The translations under genes were made by a program, and so were the position numbers. A stretch of 64,000 nt of DNA from a virus. Lineage: Duplodnaviria; Heunggongvirae; Uroviricota; Caudoviricetes. This document shows positions 6,213-63,781 of this stretch, in pieces. The stretch is from the IMG/VR virus record IMGVR_UViG_3300010279_000462. One strand, 5' to 3'. A model generated the notes under the pieces. The model was not told where the DNA came from. It searched no databases and saw nothing but the letters and a program-made list of their open reading frames with translations. How positions within the stretch are numbered: the first letter of the stretch is position 1; each line of letters begins with the position of its first letter.

Positions 6213-6243
6213 AACAAAGTCGGTCAGGAAGGAGGGCTTGACC

Positions 6244-18183: not shown

Positions 18184-19443
18184 ATGGACAATTTTCTAAC
18201 TGAGACTTCTTCAGCGAAAGTTAAAGACACTCCTACAACTTATACCGTAAAGTCCTTGGTAGAGGACGCAACGACATTTCTTCAATCCAGGGGTGACTAC
18301 CGTGACCGCGTAGTGAACTATATCAAGGGAACATGGCATCAATTTGAAAATTACTGCGAAACCAATAGCATTTTATTCTACCAGTCTGAATACAGTAACA
18401 GATTCATTGAAAGCCTTTCTATTGGTTTACAGCCTCTCAAACCGGAAACCATTAAGCGTAAGGTGGGCAATCTTAAAATGCTCGACCTGTACGCAAAAAA
18501 TGGCACATGGGAGAAGGATGCATTAGATTCCAAACCTAACCTTGAAGCGGAATTTTCTGAATTCATCGCAGCACAGGATGAGTTCTTAAAAACACGTCAC
18601 TATTCGAAATTTTCTTGTGAAACCATTTGTAAACAGACAACAGCTGTACTGAATTATCTTCAGAATAATGAAATCACCAGTTTCTCGGAAATCACTAGTG
18701 ATATCATTTCTGACTATGCTATTTCACTGAAGGGTCATGCAAAAAGTACTATGCGCTGTGAACTCAGCCGAATTAGACAGATTTTGCATAATGCCTACCT
18801 TCTAAAGTATACCGCTGATGATTTGTCCACTTACGTCCCAACGTACAATCTTGGCCAACCCCAAAGCAATGTTAAAATATGGCATTCTAGCGAGATAAAC
18901 AGAGTTCTGTCTGCGGTGGATCGGTCAAATCCTAAAGGTTTGCGGGATGCCGCTTATATCACCATTGCAGCAGAACTTGGGATGCGAAGTAAGGACATTA
19001 CTGACCTTAAGCTTTCGGATATTGATTGGGAAACTTGCACTATCTCGTTTGTCCAGAGCAAAACCGGGAAAGTCAATCCCCTTCCGCTTAATGAAAAAAT
19101 TGGCCGCGCCATTATTGACTATCTGAAAGTCAGACCCGATACGGATTGTGAATACCTATTTGTGAATATGAATCCTCCGTATGGCAAAATGAAGTCGTTC
19201 AATTCATCATTTAACAAGTATGTCAGCCGCTCCGGAGTCACTATTCCTGTTAATGCTCACCATAATCTTCACTCGCTCCGGGCTACCGTTGCGACCAAAC
19301 TTTTGAAAGAGGGCGTATCTCCTGACGATATCGTTTCTTTTCTGGGGCATTCCGACAGGGAGTCGCTTCACAACTATATCCGTATGGATATAGACAGCCT
19401 CCGAAATTGTGCATTGTCTTTTGAGAATGGTGAGTTTGTATGA
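18184..19443 (+). CDS. ritA: tyrosine recombinase RitA-like
   Basis: 419 aa. RBS AGGTGAGG. Motifs HSLRAT...LGHSD...LHNY (R-H-R-Y). Confidence 0.8.
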   Translation: MDNFLTETSSAKVKDTPTTYTVKSLVEDATTFLQSRGDYRDRVVNYIKGTWHQFENYCETNSILFYQSEYSNRFIESLSIGLQPLKPETIKRKVGNLKMLDLYAKNGTWEKDALDSKPNLEAEFSEFIAAQDEFLKTRHYSKFSCETICKQTTAVLNYLQNNEITSFSEITSDIISDYAISLKGHAKSTMRCELSRIRQILHNAYLLKYTADDLSTYVPTYNLGQPQSNVKIWHSSEINRVLSAVDRSNPKGLRDAAYITIAAELGMRSKDITDLKLSDIDWETCTISFVQSKTGKVNPLPLNEKIGRAIIDYLKVRPDTDCEYLFVNMNPPYGKMKSFNSSFNKYVSRSGVTIPVNAHHNLHSLRATVATKLLKEGVSPDDIVSFLGHSDRESLHNYIRMDIDSLRNCALSFENGEFV

Positions 19444-20420
19444 TGCGGGTTTACAAATACACAAGTGGACTATCCACACAGATACAATCCTTTATAGAGG
19501 AAAAGCGTGCTCTTGGATGCAAGTATGAAAAGGAGGCCAAAGTCTTTTATGAAATGGACAGATTTCTAGTTAGGGAAGGAGTTGTTGAGCCAATCCTCAC
19601 TCAGAATGTGGTTGAAAAATGGGTAGAGAAGCGTCCCAACGAGAAAAGAAAAAATCAACGTTGGCGACTAAATTTTACCAAGCGTTTTGTAGCTTATCTT
19701 CTGCTTCACCACTATGAAGCGTATTATCCTGAATACAAAATTTCCTCAAGCGATGACAAATGCTTCGTGCCATACATTTTCACAAACACGGAAATTGGCG
19801 ACCTTATTGCATATTTTAATACCATGAAGCCAAGTAGACAGTATCCTAATGGCCATATCGTACTTCCCTTACTGTTTCTAACACTTATATGCTGTGGGTT
19901 GCGGTCTGGTGAAGTTGCATCGCTTACAGTTAATGATGTTGATATTAAAAACGGCATTCTCACAATCAGAAATGCCAAGCACGGGAAAAGTCGCAGTATT
20001 CCTATTTCTGAAAGTATGTGCCTCAAATATGCTGAATACTATGATTTACTCCATACTAACAGCGACGGTAAGGATTATTTCTTCCCGAATGCACGTGGCA
20101 ACTGTCATCACACCAATGAAATCGAACGCAGATTTAAGGAGGCGCTATGGAACTGCGGCATTCCTTATAAAGGACGCGGTTATGGTCCTAGAGTCCATGA
20201 TCTTCGCCATACTTTTGCAGTTCGCGCCATGCAGAAGATTCGGAAGGAAAAAGGAAGTAATCTTATGGCACTTCCATATCTGTCAGTCTATTTAGGGCAC
20301 TACAACATGAACAAAACACAGCAATATTTGCACCTTGTTGTGGATGCATATCCAGAATTAATTGAGAAGCAGCAAGATTACCTTGGCGAAACAATACCAG
20401 TATGGGAGGTTTCAGAATGA
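19440..20420 (+). CDS. ritB: tyrosine recombinase RitB-like
   Basis: 326 aa. ATGA overlap with ritA. Motifs RHTFAVRA...LGHYNMNKTQQY. Confidence 0.8.
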   Translation: MMRVYKYTSGLSTQIQSFIEEKRALGCKYEKEAKVFYEMDRFLVREGVVEPILTQNVVEKWVEKRPNEKRKNQRWRLNFTKRFVAYLLLHHYEAYYPEYKISSSDDKCFVPYIFTNTEIGDLIAYFNTMKPSRQYPNGHIVLPLLFLTLICCGLRSGEVASLTVNDVDIKNGILTIRNAKHGKSRSIPISESMCLKYAEYYDLLHTNSDGKDYFFPNARGNCHHTNEIERRFKEALWNCGIPYKGRGYGPRVHDLRHTFAVRAMQKIRKEKGSNLMALPYLSVYLGHYNMNKTQQYLHLVVDAYPELIEKQQDYLGETIPVWEVSE

Positions 20421-21436
20421 GAACACCGGACTTTTCAAAATACTTAACGATGTTCCTTGAACACTATCTTCCAGAACTTAAGAATGCCAGCGAGAATACC
20501 TTGGCAACATACAGCGACACTTTCTGCTATTTTCTAACTTATTGTCAGGATGTGGAAGCAATGAAAATTGAGCGAATGTCGGTCAGTGATTTCACTGCGG
20601 AACTTGTTGAAAGATACCTGCACTGGATGGAAACAAGCCAAGGCAATAGTCTTGCAACTCGGAATAACCGACTGGCTACAATCCATTCTTTCGTTAGATT
20701 TTTGCAGCCCAGGGAACCAAAACTGCTACTCAACTTTCAGAAGATTCTTGCAATTCCAACAAAGAAAGCACCACAAAAAACTGTGCAGCCTCTCTCAAAG
20801 GAATCTGTCGCTGTACTACTTCGTCAGCCAGACACATCTACTCTCAAGGGAAGAAGGGATGCAACTGTTCTATGCGTGTTGTATGATACGGCTGCTCGTG
20901 TATCGGAAATCTGCAATCTCCGCATAGAGGATGTGCGGTTTGAGAATCCTCCGCATATTCGCATAATGGGAAAAGGAATGAAAGTGCGTACAGTTCCTAT
21001 TTTGCCAGCGACAGCTATAAACTTAAAAAGCTACCTTATAGAAACGCATCGATTAAAGCCTGAGTGCTATCACTTGCCTCTTTTCGTTAACCGTGATGGA
21101 GAACCCTTTACACGGTCCGGAATCAGGTATATTTTAAACAAATACGTCAAAATGGCCCATGAAATAGATCCATCTATTCCCGAAAGTCTTAATCCCCATC
21201 GTATCAGACATACCAAGGCAATGCATCTATATGAGGCGGTTGATGACCTTATCGATGTCCGTGATTTTCTCGGCCATGCTGATATAAAAACTACAAGTAT
21301 CTACGCTAGATCCAGTCTTGCCAAAAAGAGGAAGGCACAAGAGAAGATTTCGAATTCTCCTGTGCCTGAGATGGCATCTTGGCAACAGGATAAAGGCACA
21401 CTCGAATGGCTTAAAAACTATGGGCGCAAGAAATAG
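20417..21436 (+). CDS. ritC: tyrosine recombinase RitC-like
   Basis: About 339 aa. RBS GGGAGG 7 nt upstream. ATGA overlap with ritB. Motifs HRIRHTKAM...LGHADIKTTSIY. Confidence 0.8.
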   Translation: MRTPDFSKYLTMFLEHYLPELKNASENTLATYSDTFCYFLTYCQDVEAMKIERMSVSDFTAELVERYLHWMETSQGNSLATRNNRLATIHSFVRFLQPREPKLLLNFQKILAIPTKKAPQKTVQPLSKESVAVLLRQPDTSTLKGRRDATVLCVLYDTAARVSEICNLRIEDVRFENPPHIRIMGKGMKVRTVPILPATAINLKSYLIETHRLKPECYHLPLFVNRDGEPFTRSGIRYILNKYVKMAHEIDPSIPESLNPHRIRHTKAMHLYEAVDDLIDVRDFLGHADIKTTSIYARSSLAKKRKAQEKISNSPVPEMASWQQDKGTLEWLKNYGRKK

Positions 21437-21729: not shown

Positions 21730-21859
21730 AACGGCCTGCTGTATGATGAGGTACCAGAACCCCATGATACAGTGGGCATACATATCGGATGATCCTGCAC
21801 AACCGTGTCTGGCACGATTTGTGTAATGGGTCGAACATGAGAAATGTCGAAAAATGGCC

Positions 21860-21890
21860 TTGCTATTTCATCGATTCAGAGCAATATATG
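21860..21890 (+). promoter_or_regulatory. promoter cassette copy (TTGCTA-N17/18-ATATAT)
   Basis: TGGCCTTGCTATTT, same family as copies at 23161, 25060 and 27084. Confidence 0.5.
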
Positions 21891-21923
21891 TGCTACCGAA
21901 AATAAAGAAGGGAGCACAAAACC

Positions 21924-23006
21924 ATGAAAAAGTACGTTTTGAACATCGATGACCGCAAGGCACTGGTAGGCCGCCTGATGGAGCTGACTGGGCTGAGTTC
22001 CCAGTACACCTATATGCCGCGGTGTGCCTACCTTGTCGGCAACTACACCGTTGAGAAGGAGGGAACGCTTGTGACGGACGAAACCGCAGACCAGCAGGTC
22101 ATTGAGACCCTGCTGAACGAGGGCATCATCGTGGACCCTGATATGCCGACCCAGCAGCCGAGTGTGGCAGAAGCACCGCAGGACGAGATGCCCGGCGAGG
22201 TGACCGAACAGACCGATGCCGAGGAGGAAGCAACCGCCGAGGAATCCTCGGATGTTGAGGAAACCGATGACGAGGAGGAAGATGACACCCCTGATGAATC
22301 CACGGAGTCCGAAAGCGAGGATGTGGATGACCTGACGGTCAGCGTTCCTATGGCGGGTCACACTCCACAGAGCATCCGCAACTTCCTGAACCTGATGTAC
22401 AGCCGCGGACCGCTGCTGAACAAGGCTCTGGGAACGAATTTCTCGGTATCGGATGCTTTGCTGGAAGCCTTGGATCAGGCGACCATCCGCACGGTGAATG
22501 AGATGCTGGATGAGCTGGAGGAGTACCGCCTCGGTGCGGGAGATACCGGCATGACCGGCATCCTCATCCTGCCGGATAAGATCAGCCTGTGCTTCGCCGG
22601 ACCGCTGAGTTCGGAACAGGTGCGCGTCTGCACCCAGCTGACTTCCGCCATGAACCGCATGGCGATCACCCAGAAGCGGATTCAGGCAAAGACCGTGAAC
22701 GATGAGAACGAGAAGTACGCTTTACGCATCTGGCTCATCCGCTTGGGTCTGAATGGCAACGAACACAAGGAACTGCGCAGAGTCCTGATGCAGAACCTTT
22801 CCGGCCATGCCGCCTTCCGCACGGCAGAGGAAGCTGAGAAGTTCCGTATCAAGGAAAAGGCAAAGCGCGACAAGCTGAAAGCCGCGAAACAGGCGGCACA
22901 GGGCGGCGACGCCGATGCCGGGGAAACGGGCGAGGCGGAAGCAGACGCGCCCACACAGCCCGACTGTGGGGCGGACACGGCGCAGATGCTGGAAGCGGGA
23001 GCGTAA
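21924..23006 (+). CDS. protein with amidoligase C-terminal-like domain and acidic linker (paralog of the downstream amidoligase C-terminus)
   Basis: C-terminal ~110 aa (…NDENEKYALRIWLIRLGLNGNEHKELRRVLMQNL…) align with the amidoligase C-terminus (…TDNEKYAMRCWMLRLGFIGDEFKTAREILLRNM…). D/E-rich segment in the middle. Confidence 0.6.
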   Translation: MKKYVLNIDDRKALVGRLMELTGLSSQYTYMPRCAYLVGNYTVEKEGTLVTDETADQQVIETLLNEGIIVDPDMPTQQPSVAEAPQDEMPGEVTEQTDAEEEATAEESSDVEETDDEEEDDTPDESTESESEDVDDLTVSVPMAGHTPQSIRNFLNLMYSRGPLLNKALGTNFSVSDALLEALDQATIRTVNEMLDELEEYRLGAGDTGMTGILILPDKISLCFAGPLSSEQVRVCTQLTSAMNRMAITQKRIQAKTVNDENEKYALRIWLIRLGLNGNEHKELRRVLMQNLSGHAAFRTAEEAEKFRIKEKAKRDKLKAAKQAAQGGDADAGETGEAEADAPTQPDCGADTAQMLEAGA

Positions 23007-23160
23007 GCTCCTGACCCCTTATGGGGCCGGCAGATAACCGAGAGCCTTTTTCATTGTACCGATATTACCTCTGAAAATGTACATTATCAAGCGGATTTTC
23101 CGCAATAATGTACACGATCATTGCCCTCGAAGATCGGTGATTATTTGACCCTTTATGGCC

Positions 23161-23189
23161 TTGATATACACCCAACATGACGGTAATAT
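23161..23189 (+). promoter_or_regulatory. promoter cassette copy TTGATA-N17-TAATAT
   Basis: Exact 17-nt spacing. ATGTACA and TGTACACGATCA motifs lie upstream. Confidence 0.6.
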
Positions 23190-23236
23190 GCACATACCGC
23201 AAGGGGAACAGAACAAGACCAAAGGAGAAGAACACC

Positions 23237-24172
23237 ATGAACGATAAGACCAGAGAGCAGATTGAAGCCATGAAGAAGCAGACCATCGGGGTCGAGATCG
23301 AGATGAACAACATCACCCGCGAGAAGGCAGCCAGAAAGGTTGCGGATTACTTCGGAACGACAGCGTGGAATGCAGCCGCCCAGTACGGCTACATGAGCTG
23401 GGCTTGTAAAGACCAGCAGGGCAGGGTTTGGAAGTTCCAGCGGGACATCAGCATCCACGGACCGGACAGCGAGAAGTGCGAACTGGTGACCCCCATCCTT
23501 ACCTACGAAGACATCGAGACCTTGCAGGAAATCGTCCGACTGCTTCGCAAGGCGGGTGCAAAGTCCAGCCCCAGCAGAGGATGCGGAGTTCACATCCACA
23601 TCGGAAAGGGCGACCACGATGCAAAGACCCTGCGAAACTTGGTCAACATCATGGCAGCCCACGAGGAGCAAATCGGCAGAGCGATTCGCATCGATGAGGG
23701 ACGCACTGGTCACTACTGCCAAGTGGTCAACTACCACTTCCTCAAAGAGCTGAACCGCAGAAAGCCCACCACCATGACCCAGCTTGCCGACATCTGGTAC
23801 GAGGGCAACGATGCAGACTACGGCAGAACCCAGCACTACAATTCCAGCCGGTACCATATGCTCAACCTCCACGCAACCTTCACCAAGGGTACGATTGAGT
23901 TCCGGCTTTTCCAATTCGCAGACCCTTCGGACGGCAAGCAGAACGGGCTGCACGCCGGTGAGCTGAAGGCATACATCCAGCTTTGCCTTGCGATGAGCCA
24001 GCTTGCCAAGACGGTGCGCACGGCAAGCCCCAAGCCCCAGCAGACCGACAATGAAAAGTACGCGATGCGCTGCTGGATGCTTCGGCTGGGCTTCATCGGA
24101 GACGAATTCAAAACGGCAAGGGAAATCCTTCTGCGGAATATGGAGGGCAACGCTTCCTGGCGCAACGCATGA
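23237..24172 (+). CDS. amidoligase (Amidoligase_2 / GCS2-like carboxylate-amine ligase family)
   Basis: N-terminal IGVEIEMN motif and GCS2-like overall profile. Adjacent to two GGCT genes, the conserved neighbourhood described for phage amidoligases. RBS AAAGGAGAAG. Confidence 0.6.
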   Translation: MNDKTREQIEAMKKQTIGVEIEMNNITREKAARKVADYFGTTAWNAAAQYGYMSWACKDQQGRVWKFQRDISIHGPDSEKCELVTPILTYEDIETLQEIVRLLRKAGAKSSPSRGCGVHIHIGKGDHDAKTLRNLVNIMAAHEEQIGRAIRIDEGRTGHYCQVVNYHFLKELNRRKPTTMTQLADIWYEGNDADYGRTQHYNSSRYHMLNLHATFTKGTIEFRLFQFADPSDGKQNGLHAGELKAYIQLCLAMSQLAKTVRTASPKPQQTDNEKYAMRCWMLRLGFIGDEFKTAREILLRNMEGNASWRNA

Positions 24173-24241
24173 GCGCAGGAAGTTCGGGCACCTATCGGGC
24201 GGGCAACCGCCCTTTAGGCGGTAGAAGGAGGCAGCAAAACC

Positions 24242-24472
24242 ATGAAAAATCAGACAACCGAAAAAGCACCCGGCAGAAGCTTTCGGGTGGTCATCACCGA
24301 GACGCTCAAGCGGGTGGTCGAGGTCAACGAAAGCGAACTCAAGGAACCCACAATGGACGAAGCCATCCAAACCGTCAGCGACTGGTGGCACAACGAGCAG
24401 ATTGTTCTGGAAGCAGAGGATTTCGATGGCGTGGAATTCACGCCCGCGGAGGGCGGTGGACAGGATGACTGA
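24242..24472 (+). CDS. small acidic hypothetical protein
   Basis: 76 aa. RBS AGGAGG. Lies between the amidoligase and GGCT genes. Confidence 0.45.
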   Translation: MKNQTTEKAPGRSFRVVITETLKRVVEVNESELKEPTMDEAIQTVSDWWHNEQIVLEAEDFDGVEFTPAEGGGQDD

Positions 24473-25001
24473 CCGATTCCGGCTGAACCTTGACACCGCC
24501 AGCCGAAAGCCGACACGGTATTATCTTGCCTACGGCAGCAACCTCGACATGGAGCGTATGGGACACAGATGCCCCTACGCAGTCCCCATCGGAACGACCG
24601 AGATCTACGGCTACCGGCTCCTGTTCAAGAGGAGCAAGACCGGCAGCTACGCGACCATCGAGCAGGACGCCAACGAAAGCGTCCCGGCTGTGGTCTGGCT
24701 GCTCTCGGAATACGATGAGCGTCTGCTCGACGGGTACGAGGGCTGTCCGAGGTACTACTACAAGAAGCAGTTCCAGCTTCCGGTCTGGAATTTGGAAGGG
24801 CATCGGATGAAAAAACTGAAACCCTGCATGGCATACATCCTGCACGAAGAACGACTGCTGGGCTGCCCCAGCCGGGACTACTTCAAGCTGCTGGATGACG
24901 GATACGCAGATTGGGGATTTCCCAAGGATGTCCTCTGCCGCGGGCTTTGCGCCAGCATCGGCAGGGTGGCAGCCATGCAGTTTCTCGGAAACAGCGGATG
25001 A
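24465..25001 (+). CDS. gamma-glutamyl cyclotransferase (AIG2/GGCT-like) 1
   Basis: YYLAYGSNLDMERM...GYRLLF...YEGCPRYY is the GGCT signature. Confidence 0.75.
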   Translation: MTDRFRLNLDTASRKPTRYYLAYGSNLDMERMGHRCPYAVPIGTTEIYGYRLLFKRSKTGSYATIEQDANESVPAVVWLLSEYDERLLDGYEGCPRYYYKKQFQLPVWNLEGHRMKKLKPCMAYILHEERLLGCPSRDYFKLLDDGYADWGFPKDVLCRGLCASIGRVAAMQFLGNSG

Positions 25002-25059
25002 GTACAATATCCACGATCTTGTGAGGAAATCATTGTGCAGGATATGATGCACACCGGCC

Positions 25060-25090
25060 TTGCTATTTGAGCAAAACAGAGGCATATATA
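25060..25090 (+). promoter_or_regulatory. promoter cassette copy (TTGCTA ... ATATAT)
   Basis: CCGGCCTTGCTATTTGAGCAAAACAGAGGCATATATAG. Confidence 0.45.
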
Positions 25091-25134
25091 GCATACCGCC
25101 AGACAAGAGCGGAAAACGAAGGGAGATAAAGAAC

Positions 25135-25626
25135 ATGAATAAAACAAAGTATTACATCGCCTACGGCAGCAACCTGTCGGTAAAGCAGATGGCGCACCGA
25201 TGCCCGGATGCCCGCGTTGCGGGTCAGGCGGTGCTGGAAGACTGGGAACTGCTGTTCAAGGGCTGTGCGACCATCGAACCGAACAAGGAGAAGAACACGC
25301 CTGTTCTGGTGTGGGAGATCTCCGAGGAAGATGAGAAGCGGCTGGATGTCTACGAGGGCTACCCGCATTACTACCGCAAGGAAGACCTGACGGTCGAGGT
25401 GATTAGCGAGGGAGCAGAACCGAAAACGGTCACCGCCATGGTCTACATCATGGAGAACGACTTCGGGCATACCTGTCCGGCCATCAACTATTACGGAGTC
25501 CTGCATGACAGCTACAGGGCTTTGCATTTCCCGATGCACGTCCTTGAGGGTGCGCTGAAGAAGTGCATCGGCAAGGAGGCGGCAGCCCGGATGATCAAGG
25601 AGGTGCAGCACAATGTTTCCGAATGA
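25135..25626 (+). CDS. gamma-glutamyl cyclotransferase (AIG2/GGCT-like) 2
   Basis: YYIAYGSNLSVKQMAHRCP...YEGYPHYY. Confidence 0.75.
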   Translation: MNKTKYYIAYGSNLSVKQMAHRCPDARVAGQAVLEDWELLFKGCATIEPNKEKNTPVLVWEISEEDEKRLDVYEGYPHYYRKEDLTVEVISEGAEPKTVTAMVYIMENDFGHTCPAINYYGVLHDSYRALHFPMHVLEGALKKCIGKEAAARMIKEVQHNVSE

Positions 25627-26071
25627 GAACACCGTAAAAGCCCTGCGCGCGAAGTTCCCGGTCGGCTGCCGTGTGGTGCTGGACCAGATGGACGATGTGC
25701 AGGCCCCGCCCATCGGGACGCAGGGAACCTGCCGAGGCGTGGATGATGCCGGCTCCGTAATGGTCGCGTGGGATTCAGGCGGAAGCCTGAGCGTTGCCTA
25801 TGGCGCGGACAGTTGCCACCGTGTGGCTTCCGAAGAAGAAATCAAGGTGTCGCTCGACCACATCGGTAAAACGCGACACAGGGGCGCATTTTGCCCCAGG
25901 TGCGGAACCAGAGTGGACAAGGAGTATGGACACCAGCTTCAGGCAGTCAGCCGGGTGGCGGACATCCTGATTTGCAACACTTGTGGAACGTCAGAAGCGA
26001 TGGAGGCTTTCCGTGGCAATCAGACGCCCCTTGCTGACTGGGCAATTGTGAAAGCGGGGTGGGTCGAATGA
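25613..26071 (+). CDS. hypothetical conserved phage protein (DUF4314-like)
   Basis: RBS AAGGAGG. VVLDQMDD...GTQG motif and a CPRCG...CNTCG zinc ribbon. Confidence 0.45.
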   Translation: MFPNENTVKALRAKFPVGCRVVLDQMDDVQAPPIGTQGTCRGVDDAGSVMVAWDSGGSLSVAYGADSCHRVASEEEIKVSLDHIGKTRHRGAFCPRCGTRVDKEYGHQLQAVSRVADILICNTCGTSEAMEAFRGNQTPLADWAIVKAGWVE

Positions 26072-26439
26072 AGGTGCTTTTGGTCGAACCGATGAAGCAC
26101 CCGCAGGAGATTGATATTCAGCCGGAGCTGAAAGAGTACTACCGAATCCTCGACTGCGACTGCATCACGGCGACCTACCCTTGGGTGGAGCCGATGGCGT
26201 TGGTGACCGATGACAACGGCCTCTTTACGGACAAGCTTTTCAGCCGGTTCATCCCGGAACTGCAGCAGGCCATCCGGGGCAGCTTCTTCCTCTGCGGGAT
26301 CGGTGGGGAGGACTTTACCGACCTGCCGCCGGACCTGATGGAGAAGTTCAAGAAGCGGTTCTGGTACCCGGAAGCCTTCATCCGAACCGCCAAAGGCATG
26401 ATGGCCTTCCGGCTGGCCGATGACGCACAGCCCGAATAA
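26069..26439 (+). CDS. hypothetical phage protein (DUF3846-like)
   Basis: Starts MKVLLVEPMK. 123 aa. Start overlaps the upstream stop. Confidence 0.4.
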
Positions 26440-26448
26440 ATGCAAAAG

Positions 26449-26480
26449 CCCCTCCAGCGAGATGCCGGAGGGGTTGGTTT
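26449..26480 (+). terminator. terminator-like GC hairpin (CCCCTCC...GGAGGGG) followed by TTGGTTT
   Basis: 7-bp GC stem directly after the 26439 stop. The U-tract is weak. Confidence 0.45.
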
Positions 26481-26683
26481 GTGGAGCGATTGGGGGCCGG
26501 AAAATATCGAGGACCCTTTTCCAGTTTACTGTATATTAGCTCTCAAATGCAAGAATAGCAAGCCGGAATACCGCAAGATCCTGCACGAACTTTGGGCGGC
26601 AGATGTGTGTATATGGTCGAAAGGAAAACGGAGAGTACGAGGAACAGCCCCAGCCTCTGCTGGGGGTTCCTTGGGGGATTCCC

Positions 26684-26935
26684 TTAAAGGAAATCCCTCA
26701 TGCTCATGCCGACTTCGTTGAGCTGCTGTTCAAGGCTCATGTAGTGCCATTCTTCGTCCTCGTTTTCTTCCTCCTCGTCCAGTTCTTCGGGGTAGGGGTC
26801 GTGCTTCCAGCCGCCCTTCCGGTATTCTTCTTCCCGAATGTCGTTGCGGTCGTAAATGTCCAGCTCGTATTCTTCTTCCAGCTCTGCGATGCGTTCCTCG
26901 ATGGCGGTTTCAATCTCGGTGATGGTCTTTTTCAT
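26684..26935 (-). CDS. small highly acidic hypothetical protein (minus strand)
   Basis: Starts MKKTITEIE with RBS GGAGG on the minus strand. A GC hairpin (CAGCCCCAGC/GCTGGGG) lies downstream at about 26650-26675. Confidence 0.5.
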   Translation of the reverse strand: MKKTITEIETAIEERIAELEEEYELDIYDRNDIREEEYRKGGWKHDPYPEELDEEEENEDEEWHYMSLEQQLNEVGMSMRDFL

Positions 26936-27083
26936 GGTCGTGTCCTCCGTTTTCCTTGTGTGTTTCTTTCCTTTCGGTGACTGTATATTCGCTCTAAAAC
27001 ACATATTTATCAAGGCCATTACGCGATATAAATCCACCAAAGAATGCCCCGGATGATTGGCGATAATATGATGTTTTATGGCC

Positions 27084-27112
27084 TTGCTATTCTTCGGACA
27101 TGACGGTAATAT
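27084..27112 (+). promoter_or_regulatory. promoter cassette copy TTGCTA-N17-TAATAT
   Basis: Exact spacing. TTTATGGCCTTGCTATTC subfamily. Confidence 0.6.
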
Positions 27113-27143
27113 GCACATACCGAAACGGAAAGGAGCAAACAAC

Positions 27144-27350
27144 ATGGAACGCTACACCTACGAGATCACCTTCACCCGGCTGGACGGCCAGCCCGAAGAA
27201 GTCCAGCAGTACACCGACGAGGGCTTTGCCAGAGAATGCTTCCGGCTTTTCGATGAGCCGGACAGCGCAGAGATGTACAGCCGCATCCGCCTGACCCGCC
27301 ACGACTGGGAAACCGGCACGGACGAGACGCTGGAAACCTTGGAATTCTGA
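27144..27350 (+). CDS. small acidic hypothetical protein (68 aa)
   Basis: RBS GGAAAGGAGC. First gene behind the promoter copy. Confidence 0.55.
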   Translation: MERYTYEITFTRLDGQPEEVQQYTDEGFARECFRLFDEPDSAEMYSRIRLTRHDWETGTDETLETLEF

Positions 27351-27365
27351 AAGGAGAGAACGAAC

Positions 27366-27905
27366 ATGGATAAGAACTGGAACAAGGCCCGCCTTGATGA
27401 ACTGGCAGCCGATTTTGGCAGCGCGGCATCCCGCCGCAAGCTGGTTCAGGAATTCGGGGATTACCCCGATGCCCTGTGGGGCAACAACGAGAACGGTGAG
27501 AAGGTGATGCTTTCCATCCGGAAGGACGGTCTCACCGAGCGTGTGTTCCAAAACAACCACTGGGTGCGCGTCAGCGAGTACGGTGCGGAAGGACAGATGG
27601 AGGGTGAGACCTACGAGGGGCGGCGGGCTGAATGCCCGAAGCCGACCGAGACCGAACCGGAGGAGCTGGAACTTTCGGACGCGCAGAACGCCCGCAACGA
27701 TGAAATCTACAACGCCGCCTTCGATTTCTGCAAGGTGATGGCCGAGGATGAGAACCTTGAATGGAACATGGAGATCATTGGACAGCTTGCGGACTTTGCC
27801 GCAGAACTCCTGACCGCCCACGGCAGCCGCGTCCGCTTCCCCTCGGTGGTCATCGAGCCGGATGATACCCAGCACATCGAAGAATACTACAGCGAGGAAC
27901 AGTGA
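27366..27905 (+). CDS. acidic hypothetical protein (179 aa)
   Basis: RBS AAAGGAGAG. Co-transcribed with the 27144 gene. Confidence 0.55.
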   Translation: MDKNWNKARLDELAADFGSAASRRKLVQEFGDYPDALWGNNENGEKVMLSIRKDGLTERVFQNNHWVRVSEYGAEGQMEGETYEGRRAECPKPTETEPEELELSDAQNARNDEIYNAAFDFCKVMAEDENLEWNMEIIGQLADFAAELLTAHGSRVRFPSVVIEPDDTQHIEEYYSEEQ

Positions 27906-27951
27906 CACATTTGCCCGAACACAAGGCTGAATGATCGTGTACATTAGCCAC

Positions 27952-27980
27952 TTGCTATTGCCGAACCGTGACGGTAATAT
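27952..27980 (+). promoter_or_regulatory. promoter cassette copy TTGCTA-N17-TAATAT
   Basis: Preceded by GAATGATCGTGTACATT. Confidence 0.6.
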
Positions 27981-28011
27981 ACAGCTACCAAAACGAAAGG
28001 GGTACGAAACC

Positions 28012-28272
28012 ATGACCTACACGAAAATCAGCCTTTACACTTCCAACGGAATCCCGGAGGCACTCAGCAATCTTTGGTACGGAGCAGAAAGCTCGGTGGT
28101 CGAGATTCGGGATGCGGTCGAAGATGCCGAAAACGGCAAAGACCTCCTGCGGCGGCTGGGTGACATAAAGCTCCTGCGGCGGTTCACCCTCGACCGGGAG
28201 AACGAGCAGAGAATTCGACTGAAAAGCACGGACTGCTTCGGGAATGTAAGCTACCTTGAAATCCGAAAGTAA
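28012..28272 (+). CDS. small hypothetical protein (86 aa)
   Basis: RBS AAAGGGG. Starts MTYTKIS. Confidence 0.5.
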   Translation: MTYTKISLYTSNGIPEALSNLWYGAESSVVEIRDAVEDAENGKDLLRRLGDIKLLRRFTLDRENEQRIRLKSTDCFGNVSYLEIRK

Positions 28273-28390
28273 GCGGAAGGACGGGCAGGAGCAAGGGGCT
28301 GGGAAACCGGCCTTTTGCTCGTGTCCGCTCAGTAAAAAGTCGCCCGAATATGTACAAATCATCCGGCAAATGATCGTGTGATCTAGCCGC

Positions 28391-28419
28391 TTGATAGTGT
28401 GCGGACGTGACGGTAATAT
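28391..28419 (+). promoter_or_regulatory. promoter cassette copy TTGATA-N17-TAATAT
   Basis: Upstream ATGTACA...AATGATCGTGTGA. The leader contains GGGGGAAAGCCCC. Confidence 0.65.
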
Positions 28420-28480
28420 ACAGTCACCGCAAGGGGGAAAGCCCCACGGACGACAAAAAACAACGCTGGAGGATACAAAA

Positions 28481-28924
28481 ATGAAGAAGAACGAAGACCG
28501 CATCAACAAACTTTTCGAGGAGCTGGTTCCCATTAGCGGCAAGGCCGACAGCCTCGCCGGGGAGCTGGTCAGAGCCATCAGCCGCATCGGATACCGATTC
28601 TACAACGACGGCGACCTTGTGAACATTGGGTACGGCAAGGAAACCTGCAACCCGGCAGCCCGCTTCCTGATCGCCAAGGGCAATAACGAGATTTCCGACC
28701 TGACGGTTGCCCTTTGGGAAATCTTCAGCGAGGACGCCTACGAAAAGGTGCTGGACACCTTGGAAGGCGCGGTTGCCGACTACATCGAGCAGAACCCCGA
28801 CCTTCGCAAGCAGCCCACCGAAGATATGTGGAGCTTCCGGGATGCGGAAGAAGACAAGGATGACAGCTGGCTAGAGGAAGATGACTGCGAGGAAGACTAC
28901 TACGACGAGGCAGAAGATTTCTAA
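28481..28924 (+). CDS. acidic hypothetical protein (147 aa)
   Basis: RBS GGAGGA. Starts MKKNEDR. Confidence 0.55.
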   Translation: MKKNEDRINKLFEELVPISGKADSLAGELVRAISRIGYRFYNDGDLVNIGYGKETCNPAARFLIAKGNNEISDLTVALWEIFSEDAYEKVLDTLEGAVADYIEQNPDLRKQPTEDMWSFRDAEEDKDDSWLEEDDCEEDYYDEAEDF

Positions 28925-28938
28925 AACACACCAGACAG

Positions 28939-28970
28939 GGGAGCTTGCCGGAAACGGCGGCTCCTTTTCT
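28939..28970 (+). terminator. terminator-like GC hairpin followed by TTTTCTT
   Basis: GGAGCTTGCCG-GAAA-CGGCGGCTCC then TTTTCTT. Confidence 0.45.
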
Positions 28971-29030
28971 TGTGTCAGAACCCGTAAATGTACACCGATC
29001 TGAGGGCGAATGATCGTGTAGTATAGCCGC

Positions 29031-29059
29031 TTGATAATGTGGGACCGTGACGGTAATAT
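29031..29059 (+). promoter_or_regulatory. promoter cassette copy TTGATA-N17-TAATAT
   Basis: Upstream AATGTACA...GAATGATCGTGTAGTATAGCCGC. Confidence 0.65.
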
Positions 29060-29091
29060 ACACTCACAAAAACGAAAGCGAGGAAACGAAC

Positions 29092-29286
29092 ATGAAAAAG
29101 AAGACCCTTACCAAGAAGCAGCAGGAAGCCCTCCTGGAGATTGCCAAGCGCCTGATGGCATCGGTGGACAGCCGCGGCGACCTTGAGGAACGCGGATGCG
29201 ACAGCGAGGACTTCATCGAGGTTCCGGTCTGGGGCATCCAGAAGGCTATGGAGGAAGCCTACCTTCTGGGCAAAGCGAGCCGGTAA
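29092..29286 (+). CDS. small hypothetical protein (64 aa)
   Basis: RBS GCGAGGAAACG. Starts MKKKTLT. Confidence 0.5.
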   Translation: MKKKTLTKKQQEALLEIAKRLMASVDSRGDLEERGCDSEDFIEVPVWGIQKAMEEAYLLGKASR

Positions 29287-29397
29287 GCCCCAGACAGCCC
29301 CCACAAAGGGGCGCAGAAACAAGCAAGCAACGACCCAAGCCAGACCGCACAAGCCCCACGGAGGGGCTGTGTGGCGGCGTGGGGAAAGGACGGAGGA

Positions 29398-29622
29398 ATG
29401 AAGAACATGGAAGAAATCATGATGGATATCATCGTGGAAATCTACAACCACATGGATGAGGGCGACAAAGAAGCCTTCACGCTGGAGGATGCCAAGGAGA
29501 TGGTCGAAGACCAGATCCGGATGGATAAGGAGGCTGGTCGGGAACCGCTGGACTACGACCCACAGTTCTTCTACGACAACATCGTGGACCTCATGGAGCA
29601 GGATGCCGAGGACGAGGATTGA
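29398..29622 (+). CDS. small highly acidic hypothetical protein (about 74 aa)
   Basis: RBS GGACGGAGGA. Starts MKNMEE. Confidence 0.45.
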   Translation: MKNMEEIMMDIIVEIYNHMDEGDKEAFTLEDAKEMVEDQIRMDKEAGREPLDYDPQFFYDNIVDLMEQDAEDED

Positions 29623-29671
29623 TGTACATTCTGCCCGGTATTCCGGGCAGATGATCGTGTAGTATAGCCGC

Positions 29672-29700
29672 TTGATAGTGTGGGGCAGTGACGGTAATAT
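29672..29700 (+). promoter_or_regulatory. promoter cassette copy TTGATA-N17-TAATAT
   Basis: Upstream GATGTACA...AGATGATCGTGTAGTATAGCCGC. Confidence 0.65.
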
Positions 29701-29756
29701 ACAGACACCGAAAGGGAAAAGCCCCAAGGAAAACAAAACACACGGAGGATACTACC

Positions 29757-30059
29757 ATGAAAAAAACCTTTACCAGCACGAAGAACGAGTACCGCTTCAA
29801 GACCACCACCACGCAGGAAGACCTTGAAATGCAGGTTTGCGCCGGAGACGGTATGGTGTGCAAGTACGGTGACCATATCCTGATGGTTGACCCCTATTGG
29901 AAGGGCGGATTCATCGCCGCCATCTACGAGTTCATTGAAACCCCGGAGGAAACCGGGCTTTGCGAATGCGAATGCCGCTTGAATTTCTGCGAGAAGTCGG
30001 AAGCCTCTTTCGAGGATGGCGGCCACGCAATGGCATGGGCCATCAGCCGGGTGCAGTAA
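29757..30059 (+). CDS. cysteine-rich small hypothetical protein (100 aa)
   Basis: RBS CACGGAGGA. Starts MKKTFT. Contains CECECRLNFC. Confidence 0.55.
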   Translation: MKKTFTSTKNEYRFKTTTTQEDLEMQVCAGDGMVCKYGDHILMVDPYWKGGFIAAIYEFIETPEETGLCECECRLNFCEKSEASFEDGGHAMAWAISRVQ

Positions 30060-30178
30060 AGCACCCAAGGGCAAGGCTCCCGGCAGGGGGCTTTTGCTCG
30101 TTGTGGCGTATCCTCCGCGTAGAATTATACACATAAATCCGACAATACCGAGTGCGAATGATTGTGTATCATAGCCGC

Positions 30179-30207
30179 TTGCTATATCCCGGCACTGACG
30201 GTAATAT
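30179..30207 (+). promoter_or_regulatory. promoter cassette copy TTGCTA-N17-TAATAT
   Basis: Upstream TATACA...GAATGATTGTGTATCATAGCCGC. The leader contains GGGGGAAAGCCCC. Confidence 0.6.
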
Positions 30208-30264
30208 ACAGACACCGAAAGGGGGAAAGCCCCACGGAAACAAAACACACGGAGGATACACACC

Positions 30265-30642
30265 ATGATGAAGAAAGCGAAAACCTACCTTGCCAGCATC
30301 GAGAAGGCCACCACCGAGCGGGAGCTGCTCGGCATCGAGATCCAGTTCAAGCAGGACATGACGATCAGCTGCGATGACCTCGGAAAACTTTGCAGGGCGG
30401 CAGAAGACAAGCGGTACACCCTGCGGAACAACGAGGAGACCAAGCGGCTGAAGCACATCCTTTTCTTCCGTACCAAGGCGGAGATGGACGCCTACCACGA
30501 CATGAGCCGCAAGCCGGAAGCGTGGAGCGCAGAGGAAATCGAACACCAGCGCATTCGCTTCTGCAGCGTTTGGCAGGTCATCGAGGAAGCGGAGCTTGCC
30601 GATGAGTATGAGGCTTGGAAGGAAGCCAACCCCAACGCATAA
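30265..30642 (+). CDS. hypothetical protein (125 aa)
   Basis: RBS CACGGAGGA. Starts MMKKAKT. Confidence 0.55.
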   Translation: MMKKAKTYLASIEKATTERELLGIEIQFKQDMTISCDDLGKLCRAAEDKRYTLRNNEETKRLKHILFFRTKAEMDAYHDMSRKPEAWSAEEIEHQRIRFCSVWQVIEEAELADEYEAWKEANPNA

Positions 30643-30650
30643 CCCAAAAA

Positions 30651-30682
30651 GGACACACGCCCCGCAAGGGGCTGTGTCTCGT
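30651..30682 (+). terminator. weak terminator-like hairpin (ACACGCCCC-GCAA-GGGGCTGTGT)
   Basis: GC stem with one bulge. No clear U-tract. Confidence 0.3.
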
Positions 30683-30753
30683 ATCCACCATGTTTCCGAA
30701 AATGGAAAAGATTTTGAATACAAAATAAAAAGTTTCCCAAATGGGAAAATGAT

Positions 30754-30782
30754 TTGATATTCTGCGTATAATATGCTATACT
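30754..30782 (+). promoter_or_regulatory. sigma70-like promoter TTGATA-N17-TATACT
   Basis: Exact spacing. Upstream direct repeats AAATGGAAAAGATTTTGA / AAATGGGAAAATGATTTGA. Confidence 0.5.
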
Positions 30783-30804
30783 AGGAAAAAGGAGGCGGGA
30801 AAGT

Positions 30805-32022
30805 ATGGTTGTGCGAAAAGAATACCTTGATCAGCTTTGGGCATGGAAAGATGAGCAGCAGATTAAGGTTGTGACCGGAATTCGACGCTGTGGAAAGTCT
30901 GTACTTTTGGAACAGTATCAGCAACGTCTTTTAGAAGAGGGGGTTGCACCGGAACAGATTATTTCAATCAATTTTGAAGACATGGATAATGAGCCTTTGA
31001 AGGATTATAGGGAACTGTATCGGTATCTCAAGGAGCATTTGTGCGTTGGTAAAATGACCTATATCTTTTTGGATGAAATTCAGGAAGTTGAGTATTTTGA
31101 AAAGGTGGTCGACAGTCTTTATATCCGAGATGGTGTGGACATCTATATTACAGGCTCGAATGCTTATATGTTGTCAAGTGAGCTTGCGACTCTTTTGTCA
31201 GGTCGATATACAGAAATAAAGATGCTGCCGCTTTCATTCCGCGAATATAGCGCTGTGACAGGTTTGCCGAAAGAAGAAGGTTTTGCGGAGTTTATGAAAA
31301 CCGGCGGAATTCCGTATGTGGCTGCAATGAACCGCACAGATGACAAGGTAAATCAATATCTTGAAGGAATTTATAACACTGTTATCATAAAAGATATTGA
31401 GCAGCGGCAGGCAAGACGAGAAAAAGAAGGCGGAAGACGAAAAATCACGGATATTACGCTGCTGAAGACAATTGCACGATATCTCGCAAGTGTAATCGGT
31501 AGCCCGGTATCTATGAAGAGCATAACTGATTATCTGACATCAGCAGGAAGAAAGGTTTCACAGAACACAGTTAGCGATTATGTTGAAGCATTAACGGAAT
31601 CGTTCGTCTTTTACCCGGTAGAACGCTTTGACATTGTTGGAAAGCAGATTCTAAAGGTCAATAATAAGTTTTACATGGTCGATATGGGAATCAGGAACCA
31701 CATTCTTCCAAGAAAGCGTTATGATCTTGGATTTACCATTGAAAATATTGTGTTCCTTGAACTGACACGAAGAGGAGGACAAATCAATATAGGAAAATAT
31801 GGCTCCACAGAAGTAGATTTTGTGGTACAGAAGGAAGGCGTTCTGACTTATTATCAGGTGACAGCTGACATGACAGCCGAAGAAACATTTGAACGAGAGA
31901 TGCGGCCTTTGCGTAGCATCCAGGACAACTATGAAAAGATTGTATTGACACTGGATCGGTTCTCTCTTGGAAATTACGACGGCATAAAAGTCGTGAATGT
32001 CATTGACTGGCTATTGACATGA
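30805..32022 (+). CDS. AAA+ ATPase (DUF4143-type ATP-binding protein)
   Basis: Walker A GIRRCGKS and Walker B IFLDEIQ. In a low-GC island. Confidence 0.75.
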   Translation: MVVRKEYLDQLWAWKDEQQIKVVTGIRRCGKSVLLEQYQQRLLEEGVAPEQIISINFEDMDNEPLKDYRELYRYLKEHLCVGKMTYIFLDEIQEVEYFEKVVDSLYIRDGVDIYITGSNAYMLSSELATLLSGRYTEIKMLPLSFREYSAVTGLPKEEGFAEFMKTGGIPYVAAMNRTDDKVNQYLEGIYNTVIIKDIEQRQARREKEGGRRKITDITLLKTIARYLASVIGSPVSMKSITDYLTSAGRKVSQNTVSDYVEALTESFVFYPVERFDIVGKQILKVNNKFYMVDMGIRNHILPRKRYDLGFTIENIVFLELTRRGGQINIGKYGSTEVDFVVQKEGVLTYYQVTADMTAEETFEREMRPLRSIQDNYEKIVLTLDRFSLGNYDGIKVVNVIDWLLT

Positions 32023-32270
32023 AGAGGATGCGTATGAATGATGCAAACTTCGGTCCGAAGAAACAAGATGGCAATGCCAATCGGGGTACCACTGATAAAA
32101 TGAGCGTTACGGAATCGCTCACAGGAATTCTAAAAGATGAAAACCTTGAGGCACTAAAAGCGGAGAGGATAAAAGAAAAGTACGAAACTGTTTAATACAC
32201 GATATATTTCAAGGACTTCTTCGGAGGTCCTTTTTCTTTTGCTCATTTTCAAAGAAGGGAGGGAAAGCCA

Positions 32271-62698: not shown

Positions 62699-62784
62699 AC
62701 ATTTTGTCGGTATTGCTTCGATCTCGGCATTCTGTCAGGCAGATAATTTGTCGGTATTATGCCGATTTATCTTTGCGACAGAAC

Positions 62785-62813
62785 TTGCTATTCGGGTCCA
62801 TATGCGGCAATAT
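62785..62813 (+). promoter_or_regulatory. promoter cassette family copy TTGCTA-N17-CAATAT
   Basis: ACTTGCTATTCGGG...GGCAATATAC resembles the 27084 copy. Precedes the serine recombinase. Confidence 0.45.
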
Positions 62814-62839
62814 ACGACTACCAAAAGGAGGACAACACA

Positions 62840-63781
62840 ATGGAAGTGATGGTTGATCGCAAGCGGGCGGCGGCTTATTGCCGAGTCAGTACGGGAATGG
62901 AATGTCAGGAAGGTTCGTATGAAACCCAAATCAAGTACTACAAGGACCTGATCTCTAACGACCCGGATGAGGAACTGGTAAAAATCTATGCAGATGAGGG
63001 AAGCGGACGGAGTACGCAACGCCGGCCTGAGTTCCAGCAGATGATGCAGGACTGTGAGGATGGCAAGATCGATGTCATCTACACCAAGTCCATCTCCCGA
63101 TTCTCCCGAAATATGCTTGATTGTGTGACCGCAGTGCGTCGGCTGAAAGAGCTGGGCATTGCGGTCATTTTTGAACGGGAAAACATCAACACAATGGACC
63201 GCCAGAACGAACTGTTCTTCCACATCATGGCGATTATCGCTGAGGAAGAATCCAAGAGCATCGGCGGAAATGTAAAGCTCGCCATTGACCACTGCCATGA
63301 GGAAGGCAAGCCGACCGGGCGCGTGACTTATGGGTATCGCCGGGTAAACAACAAAGGCGAGTGGCGCATTGAGGAATCGGAGGCACGGCGCGTCCGTTGT
63401 GCCTTTGACCTTGCCGCCAAGGGCATCGGCTACGATGCTATCCGGAAGGAACTGGACGCGATGGAAAAGGCGGAAGGAACAGGCGTTTCATGGTCCCAAA
63501 ACCGCAACCGTGTTCCGATGCTGTTGAAGCACATCGCCTACACGGGGGACTACATCACGGACACCTACTATACGGCATACGGCAAAAACGGCCACCGATA
63601 CAGCAAGCGGAATAACGGGGAACGCGCCCAGACCTATCTGGAAGGTCATCATGAACCCATTGTCAGCAAGGAGCAGTTCGAGCGTGTCCAGACCCTGATG
63701 AGCATGGGACTGCTTCACTCTGGCAGGAAGAAGTACACGAAGGAACAGCAGGAGCTTCTAAACGATTCCAGCTGGCAGTAA
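62840..63781 (+). CDS. serine recombinase (resolvase plus recombinase domains)
   Basis: AAYCRVSTG with catalytic Ser. SRFSRN. Recombinase domain YGYRRVN. RBS AAAGGAGGA. Confidence 0.8.
   Translation: MEVMVDRKRAAAYCRVSTGMECQEGSYETQIKYYKDLISNDPDEELVKIYADEGSGRSTQRRPEFQQMMQDCEDGKIDVIYTKSISRFSRNMLDCVTAVRRLKELGIAVIFERENINTMDRQNELFFHIMAIIAEEESKSIGGNVKLAIDHCHEEGKPTGRVTYGYRRVNNKGEWRIEESEARRVRCAFDLAAKGIGYDAIRKELDAMEKAEGTGVSWSQNRNRVPMLLKHIAYTGDYITDTYYTAYGKNGHRYSKRNNGERAQTYLEGHHEPIVSKEQFERVQTLMSMGLLHSGRKKYTKEQQELLNDSSWQ

Follow-up and report, generated by a model that had tools for sequence, protein, structure and literature searches.

A repeated promoter-like cassette heads an array of accessory genes upstream of the terminase in temperate phages of gut Clostridia

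The 64,000-nucleotide stretch of viral DNA analysed here (IMG/VR record IMGVR_UViG_3300010279_000462, hereafter the window) carries a repeated promoter cassette which is real, strongly non-random, evolutionarily conserved and unannotated. About twelve cassettes (seven strict and six diverged copies) of at least three subfamilies were counted, the region 21.8–30.7 kb having been read directly and the units then aligned side by side. The window itself belongs to an HK97-like temperate siphophage of gut Clostridia with an architecture resembling that of Candidatus (Ca.) Heliusvirales. Considering the anatomy of the repeat and the genes behind it, it appears rather probable that the cassettes head an array of about twelve self-contained transcription units, co-regulated but terminated independently of one another, whose products are mostly acidic accessory proteins along with enzymes of DNA modification.

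A preliminary description of the window had listed ten near-identical units, which are named here after the position of their -35 element. Searching for TTGMTA-N12-GACGG-TAATAT without mismatches gave seven copies, all on the plus strand (23161, 27084, 27952, 28391, 29031, 29672 and 30179), and with up to three mismatches nine matches were found in 64 kb as against 0.06 expected. The segment GACGGTAATAT alone occurs seven times in the window (0.39 expected), and an 11-mer box, ATGATCGTGTA, with at most one mismatch, also seven times (0.84 expected). The repeat was thus correctly recognised, however its uniformity was not, as the listed copies at 21860, 25060 and 62785 are diverged and do not show the 17 nucleotides ending in GTGACGG, followed by TAATAT, that had been ascribed to every unit. 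In place of GTGACGG-TAATAT the copy at 21860 has CAGAGC-AATATA and that at 25060 has CAGAGG-CATATA; both are barely detected by the main-family profile (E-values of 1.8 and 1.1, respectively) and, with their common -35 context GGCC-TTGCTATTT, they constitute a third subfamily where only two had been proposed. The copy at 62785 reads ATGCGG-CAATAT and is detected at an E-value of 4e-4. The other three diverged copies, overlooked earlier, lie on the minus strand with -35 elements at 27013->27008, 26561->26556 and 23090->23085. Because cassettes sit on both strands, half-sites had seemed to be inverted between copies; the 'inverted' box at 23111–23121 is in fact the box of minus-strand cassette 23090 and not of unit 23161. 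ATGTACA is indeed enriched in the window (14 sites against 4.1 expected), but of the ten listed units no more than four have it upstream (23161, 28391, 29031 and 29672), and ATACACA or GACACA stands at its place in others.

Each unit has a conserved span of approximately 90–110 bp. A loose inverted partner, (A/T)(G/A)TACAC, is followed by the 11-bp box, a -35 hexamer TTG(A/C)TA, a spacer of 17 nucleotides whose five 3' bases are GACGG (or AGAGC/G), a -10 element TAATAT (or GAATAT, AATATA), a leader, a ribosome-binding site (RBS) and an ATG. The start-of-transcript region after the -10 is conserved as ACAG.CACCGAAAGGG and leads into a purine-rich RBS, and the distance from the -35 to the ATG ranges from 53 to 93 nucleotides with clusters around 60, 73 and 86. 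The sigma-70/sigma-A anatomy earlier assigned to the units, with RBS and start codon, is borne out by these alignments; promoter activity and membership of one regulon are inferred.

With at most one mismatch the box lies exactly 21 nucleotides upstream of the -35 in all five copies from 27952 to 30179, and its offset is 21 nucleotides in 50 non-redundant units, 31 in 21 units and 16 in three, while shuffled box motifs gave no comparable offset peaks. Since the two main offsets differ by exactly 10 bp, the box is kept on one face of the helix. Across several hundred units, information content is high in the box, in TAGCCGC, the -35, GACGG, the -10 and the first 15 nucleotides beyond it, and low in the first 11 spacer nucleotides and further upstream. 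In the five subfamily 2 copies of the window the box is nearly invariant whereas the adjoining spacer differs at most positions, and the conservation is therefore position-specific and not a by-product of recent duplication. Such a box, far more conserved than the sequence next to it and held at two discrete offsets, fits the protein operator that the preliminary description had envisaged.

The inverted partner tends to lie 17–19 or 25–28 nucleotides further upstream of the box. Inverted exact matches of at least 7 nucleotides were found in 18 of 120 units and direct ones in 5, a real but weak enrichment. A hairpin formed by TACAC... and ...GTGTA was considered and rejected: the pairing energy of the box with the DNA upstream of it equals that of shuffled sequences (mean z -0.1), with stems of about 5 bp and loops of 17–28 nucleotides. 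Given the lack of a pairing advantage and the inconsistent folds, two sites for protein binding are a likelier reading than a hairpin, and the enrichment of inverted TACAC/GTGTA would be better explained in this manner. Two other candidate features were also discarded. A leader hairpin, GGGG(A)AAAGCCCC, occurs in many long leaders and is missing from many others, so it is not a defining part of the cassette, and an inverted repeat GTGAC...GTCAC around the -10 is seen in some copies only.

The cassette is not peculiar to this window. At least 119 stretches of IMG/VR viral contigs contain the strict pattern without mismatch, as do many Clostridia genomes, and a profile built from 241 units detected 585 copies in 240 sequences, commonly five to seven per locus. 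Amongst 75 genome loci with a profile match, all but two or three are from Clostridia, including isolates such as Faecalibacterium intestinale, Blautia and Eubacterium plexicaudatum; sequences from Bacteroidota, Paenibacillus and others that fit the pattern were not recovered by the profile and are attributed to chance. Cultured strains with the array include F. intestinale CLA-AA-H281, whose locus L238 has seven cassettes, and Blautia sp. HCP28S3_G10. On searching with the proteins of the window (tblastn), the array was found as a syntenic module in about 80 loci, between DNA-methylase genes and the terminase and directly upstream of TerS/TerL. Across these loci TerS and TerL are about 95 % identical, and the accessory proteins 35–95 %. 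TerL of the window is 76 % identical to that of Clostridium phage NatCom_42228, the record of which is classified as Ca. Heliusvirales; its genes follow the order seen in the window, and it carries three cassettes (two detected by the profile and one by eye), all of the AGAGC-(G)AATAT type and none annotated. As regards a possible place in Ca. Heliusvirales/Heliusviridae, the window has genes for PolA, SNF2 helicase, TerL, portal, ClpP and HK97 capsid, and the gene set appears to fit the description of Ca. Heliusviridae, a very widespread gut lineage, in which promoters are not mentioned (10.1101/2021.03.30.437683). A megablast search of the array against deposited phages gave only three weak, partial matches, and a literature search by motif strings and domain combination found no description of the cassette.

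Comparison of relatives also shows how the array changes. Written as strings of gene clusters, the arrays are mostly colinear and differ by whole units (for example 3-5-4-2-0-0-1, 3-4-6-2-0-0-1 and 5-6-2-0-0-1), with occasional extra or substituted genes. In loci L112 and L058, which have an identical subfamily 2 cassette, the cassette is followed in L112 by a 68-residue and then an 86-residue gene and in L058 directly by the 86-residue gene. In the window and in locus L102 the 68-residue gene is preceded by a cassette of subfamily 1, in L112 by one of subfamily 2. Between the window and L102, the open reading frame (ORF) of Nmad4 is 30–65 % identical, and the flanking cassette and terminator DNA 70–92 %. 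Gain, loss and replacement of genes cassette by cassette thus occur in related phages, as the earlier idea of modular, swappable genes implied; however, array order is largely conserved, which limits 'swappable' to occasional whole-gene changes.

Along the window, the first unit (subfamily 3; 21854..21926, plus strand) contains ATGGCC-TTGCTA (hexamer at 21860–21865), 17 nucleotides ending in CAGAGC, AATATA (21883–21888), a leader and an ATG at 21924, which begins the gene for a 360-residue acidic protein (21924–23006). Facing it on the minus strand is a cassette without a gene (23062..23121), with box ATGATCGTGTA (23121->23111), TTGATA (23090->23085), 17 nucleotides ending in CAGAGG and TAATAT (23067->23062); downstream of it there are only an 11-codon ORF and the hairpin that follows the 360-residue gene. 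The next plus-strand unit, of subfamily 1 (23130..23239), has a degenerate box AAGATCGGTGA at the 31-nucleotide offset, ATGGCC-TTGATA (23161), GACGG-TAATAT (23184–23189) and an ATG at 23237, and precedes genes for amidoligase, DpnD/PcfM and GGACT proteins (23237–25001). It is followed by a subfamily 3 unit on the plus strand (25029..25137), with box-like ATCATTGTGCA at the same offset, TTGCTA (25060), CAGAGG-CATATA (25083–25088) and an ATG at 25135, ahead of GGACT, DUF4314 and DUF3846 genes (25135–26439).

A second minus-strand cassette without a gene (26533..26592; profile E-value 5e-5) comprises box-like AAGTTCGTGCA (26592->26582), TTGCTA (26561->26556), 17 nucleotides and TAATAT (26538->26533), and runs into a bidirectional terminator at 26449–26473. 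The claim that each cassette drives a separate gene does not hold for these two gene-less copies, 23062–23090 and 26533–26561, both aimed at terminators; possible explanations are that the genes they once served have been deleted, or that they give rise to short antisense RNAs. The third minus-strand cassette (26933..27044) has the full conserved leader: ATGGCC-TTGATA (27013->27008) and TTAGAGC-GAATAT (26990->26985) are followed by leader ACAGTCACCGAAAGG, GGAGGA and an ATG at 26935 that starts the gene for an 83-residue acidic protein (26935->26684, minus strand). Divergent from it is a subfamily 1 unit on the plus strand (27053..27146), with box-like ATGATTGGCGA at the 31-nucleotide offset, ATGGCC-TTGCTA (27084), GACGG-TAATAT (27107–27112) and an ATG at 27144, preceding genes for acidic proteins of 68 and 179 residues (27144–27905).

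The five remaining units of the array are of subfamily 2 and lie on the plus strand. The unit at 27931..28014 consists of box ATGATCGTGTA (27931–27941), TTGCTA (27952), GACGG-TAATAT (27975–27980) and an ATG at 28012, and is predicted to drive the gene for the 86-residue protein. That at 28370..28483 has box ATGATCGTGTG (28370–28380), TTGATA (28391), TAATAT (28414–28419), a long leader with a GGGGGAAAGCCCC hairpin and an ATG at 28481, from which a 147-residue acidic protein is encoded. In the unit at 29010..29094 the box (29010–29020), TTGATA (29031) and TAATAT (29054–29059) precede an ATG at 29092, the start of genes for DUF6900 and a 71-residue acidic protein, and in that at 29651..29759 the box (29651–29661), TTGATA (29672) and TAATAT (29695–29700) precede an ATG at 29757, the predicted cargo being Nmad4. 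The last one (30158..30267), with box ATGATTGTGTA (30158–30168), TTGCTA (30179), TAATAT (30202–30207) and an ATG at 30265, stands before the gene for a 125-residue protein, which is the final array gene before terS in relatives.

Terminators or terminator-type hairpins with T runs follow the DUF3846, 86-residue, 147-residue and Nmad4 genes. A terminator scan found that at 26449–26473, after DUF3846, and one at 28945–28960; the terminator upstream of cassette 29031 extends over approximately 28940–28971, and the hairpins at about 28289–28320 (upstream of 28391) and 30071–30099 (upstream of 30179) were read by eye. Several terminators have the flank CTTTTGCTCGT in common. A stem-loop beside the promoter is clear before 28391, 29031 and 30179 and absent before 27952 and 29672, and in the relatives a terminator-like hairpin was scored in the 115 nucleotides upstream of 59 % of cassettes as against 30 % of random windows, by the same loose criterion.

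The gap before terS, 136–206 nucleotides long, contains no cassette, only hairpins and a terminator. A conserved GC-rich hairpin stands right after the last array gene, and a strong terminator (AAGGACTTCTTCGGAGGTCCTT plus a T run) lies about 25 nucleotides before the RBS of terS (the pair at 30652–30682 and 32211–32240 in the window). Both are kept in all relatives, for example in L047 and L102, which suggests that the late operon is controlled by antitermination or read-through, or else that a cos region lies here. In the window (30700–32270) an AAA_14/DUF4143 ATPase gene (30805–32022) is inserted between the final array gene and terS, with its own TTGATA-17-TATACT promoter at 30754. This gene is an insertion found in only three related loci; at its site the relatives have a gap of 136–143 nucleotides, or a 206-nucleotide form with a footprint of about 65 nucleotides.

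That the element is a phage, as previously stated, is confirmed by the genes for TerS, TerL, portal, ClpP protease, HK97-type capsid and a tape measure of 1999 residues, which together with the AAA_14/DUF4143 ATPase, lysins and a large serine recombinase occupy the downstream side of the array. The replication genes code for DNA polymerase A, DUF932, SNF2 helicase and a D5-type primase-helicase, and the other early-side genes for a MazF-like toxin, SAM synthetase, an HNH protein and three DNA methyltransferases. The toxin gene (7521–8120) encodes a PemK/MazF-like domain with a 60-residue N-terminal extension and overlaps the following primase-helicase gene, and NatCom_42228 has a MazF-like gene at the equivalent position. 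SAM synthetase lies beside the HNH protein and the three methyltransferases (ParB-N6/N4, N6/N4 and C5; 11290–18047), an order kept in relatives, directly upstream of the array.

Three consecutive tyrosine recombinases come between these genes and the array in the window (18184–21436; 419, 326 and 344 residues, genes overlapping) and are reminiscent of a 'recombinase in trio' element. They represent an insertion, as only three of about 80 related loci have counterparts of the trio, at different positions and 29–40 % identical; in L089 (2193–5306) it lies inside the amidoligase gene and in L069 (4183–7296) beside an inverted DpnD-GGACT-DUF4314 segment.

Domains recognised in the array are amidoligase, DpnD/PcfM, two GGACT, DUF4314, DUF3846, DUF6900 and Nmad4, and domain searches gave no family match for the remaining array genes. 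DpnD/PcfM, amidoligase, DUF4314 and DUF3846 are mainly known from conjugative elements. The array proteins are mostly strongly acidic, with isoelectric points of 4.1–4.7. The 360-residue protein and the amidoligase (23237–24172) have a common C-terminal domain of about 74 residues (38 % identity, E-value 6e-15) with the motif EKYA.R.W..RLG..G.E.K, and the same tail occurs in a family of 229-residue proteins behind cassettes at 10 other loci.

The integrase appears to belong to the same promoter class. A diverged cassette on the plus strand (62764..62842), with TTGCTA (62785), 17 nucleotides ending in ATGCGG, CAATAT (62808–62813), leader ACGACTACCAAAAGGAGG and an ATG at 62840, precedes the large serine recombinase gene; L240, a close relative, also has a diverged cassette before its serine recombinase, and stronger cassettes precede serine recombinases in eight other loci. 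Behind the cassette of L240 (9920–13647) stand three serine recombinase genes in tandem (340, 497 and 398 residues), and the window ends within the first.

On the reading that we favour, host sigma-A RNA polymerase would start about 7 nucleotides past the -10 at each cassette, so that each gene or short operon would be expressed independently, with the terminators insulating the units. A putative common DNA-binding protein probably binds the helically phased box and could tune all units, including the integrase promoter. The cargo is probably an anti-restriction/DNA-modification set needed early in infection: the acidic proteins, amidoligase, GGACT and Nmad4, beside SAM synthetase and three methyltransferases, may protect or modify incoming or replicating phage DNA. 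A related cassette at the integrase argues against a purely late role and would suit early expression after entry. In a second role, the conserved cassettes, RBSs and terminators could offer homology for occasional gain, loss or replacement of single genes.

Several points weigh against this reading. The -10 agrees with TATAAT at only four of six positions, and to our knowledge GACGG, though strongly conserved, has no role in sigma-A promoters. Many of the compared units are orthologues, and counts across loci overstate their independence. Neither the array nor the rest of the window yielded a DNA-binding protein, and a search for the box near a repressor gene, made in the L240 DNA downstream of the integrase, gave one unconvincing 10/11 match inside an ORF. 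The anti-defence role is read from protein composition, domain names and neighbourhood only. As regards exchange, the sole precise breakpoint examined, the presence/absence junction of the 68-residue gene between L112 and L058, lies at microhomology between two ribosome-binding sites and not within the promoter, and recombination at cassettes is only occasional because array order is mostly conserved.

The location of the box could alternatively indicate activator-dependent middle or late promoters, at which a phage activator bound to the box (at about -52 or -62) would switch on the array, and by read-through the terminase, after replication. A box upstream of the core promoter at offsets exactly 10 bp apart is as for class I activators, the -10 is imperfect, and the array stands directly before terS in the same orientation with no cassette in the gap. 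However, the -35 (TTG..A) and the 17-nucleotide spacing are good, unlike in typical activator-dependent promoters, several units end in a terminator, a strong terminator lies right before terS, a related cassette serves the integrase although integration is no late function, and no activator was identified. We regard this explanation as a genuine contender, albeit an improbable one. Less likely still, the units could be morons expressed from the repressed prophage and not during infection, from which the lysogen would profit through superinfection exclusion, defence or fitness. The phage is temperate, the promoter-gene-terminator anatomy fits, and some genes are present or absent between genes otherwise adjacent in relatives; nevertheless, the cargo resembles anti-restriction/DNA-modification functions and adjoins phage methyltransferases, a related promoter precedes the integrase, which is normally silent in lysogens, and one promoter sequence is shared by all units, unlike in classical morons.

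The preliminary description had put forward the product of 6789–7241, taken to be ArpU/sigma-like, as the regulator. This proposal finds no backing, as the protein has no sequence match in Pfam, NCBIfam or the PDB even at E-values up to 10, its confident structural model (predicted local distance difference test, pLDDT, 93) has generic helical-bundle matches only (best E-value 0.13) with no match to sigma or ArpU, and just 13 homologues were found, all unannotated. That it, or the product of 6202–6792, might act as a phage sigma-like factor reading GACGG-TAATAT or AGAGC-GAATAT in place of host sigma-A is accordingly quite improbable: conservation does reach past the canonical hexamers and the C-terminal parts of both proteins resemble helix-turn-helix segments by eye, yet the TTG of the -35, the 17-nucleotide spacer and the TA...T of the -10 are what sigma-A requires.

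Structured nucleic-acid elements, suggested by the inverted TACAC.../...GTGTA partners and by the three tyrosine recombinase genes immediately upstream of the array, are largely refuted and scarcely credible, be it as Frpo/ssi-like single-strand promoters (besides the pairing no better than shuffled, the single-stranded DNA folds of seven cassettes differ, with z from +0.6 to -3.3, and none pairs -35 with -10), as an integron-like array with attC-like sites (attC-type hairpins are unsupported, every cassette has its own promoter, and the trio is rare, at differing positions and hence not consistently adjacent) or as an RNA motif (Rfam gave no match at gathering score in the window and, at E-values up to 1, only an irrelevant mir-10 match outside the cassettes).

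If the cassettes work as proposed, they would provide a defined handle on regulation in very widespread and experimentally almost untouched gut phages of Faecalibacterium, Blautia and relatives. One short motif would mark a whole class of co-expressed accessory genes, the box could serve as bait for the regulator, and the cassette would flag candidate anti-restriction/anti-defence genes, most of them without known function. On the practical side, it may offer a compact, naturally portable promoter-leader-terminator unit for Clostridia genetics. A bolder proposal, possible though in our view doubtful, is that in a lineage present in most human guts a portable promoter-operator-leader-terminator cassette defines a regulon coupling anti-restriction/DNA-modification genes to the integrase and also serves as an exchange linker. 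It is speculative that, if the genome end lies in the hairpin-rich gap before terS, the array would be on the DNA end entering first and would be the phage counterpart of a plasmid leading region.

The closest analogues, by resemblance of organisation, appear to be phage morons and the promoter-early stem-loop (PeSL) cassettes of T4-type phages (Arbiol et al. 2010, PMC2839356; Comeau et al. 2014, PMC4122927). As in PeSL cassettes, many copies of one sigma-70-like promoter, some with a terminator-like stem-loop nearby, come with an RBS and a start codon, cluster in a variable region whose small genes have no known function, and delimit insertions, deletions and replacements between related phages. 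There is, however, no sequence relationship, and the hosts of the present cassettes are temperate siphoviruses of Clostridia whereas PeSLs belong to lytic myoviruses of Gram-negative bacteria. Additionally, a conserved box (ATGATCGTGTA..TAGCCGC) at two phased offsets lies upstream of the -35 where PeSLs have an AT-rich tract, the stem-loop, where present, stands apart from the hexamers as an upstream terminator-type hairpin and is not interleaved with them, and array order is far more conserved. The idea of regulatory cassettes that double as recombination linkers would thereby be extended from lytic T4-type phages to temperate siphoviruses of Gram-positive anaerobes.

Morons of lambdoid phages, reportedly described by Juhala and colleagues and by Hendrix and colleagues in 2000, are similar in that a lone gene is bracketed by a promoter of its own and a factor-independent terminator and is found in some phages between two genes that adjoin in their relatives. 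Genes inserted in this manner do occur in the array. Classical morons, however, stand singly under promoters unrelated to one another, and it is expression from the prophage that defines them, whereas here a dozen units have one promoter family.

Aca-controlled anti-CRISPR promoters usually have operators within the core promoter and a helix-turn-helix Aca gene in the same operon (PMC13551039). They resemble the cassettes in that small anti-defence genes are placed under a strong promoter next to a repeat, the possible operator of a dedicated regulator, all of which is only predicted here; the box, however, lies upstream of the -35, and no DNA-binding domain, helix-turn-helix or other, was found in the array proteins. 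The anti-defence islands of plasmid leading regions likewise have small same-strand accessory genes beside methyltransferases and repeated dedicated promoters, but their Frpo promoters act as folded single strands (Samuel et al. 2024, PMC11541004). A fold of this kind was not seen in the cassettes, and they belong to a phage with double-stranded DNA.

Repeated motifs of actinobacteriophages include stoperators, which are bound by the immunity repressor and lie genome-wide inside transcription units, start-associated sequences, and the early promoters of phiC31 with conserved inverted repeats. These, too, are short motifs repeated many times in one orientation relative to transcription that tie genes to one regulator or expression class; unlike stoperators, the present motif stands ahead of promoters and occurs only in one array and at the integrase. 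Set against these systems, the cassette array is a widespread relative of known repeated promoter-terminator cassettes and of morons, and not a categorically new one.

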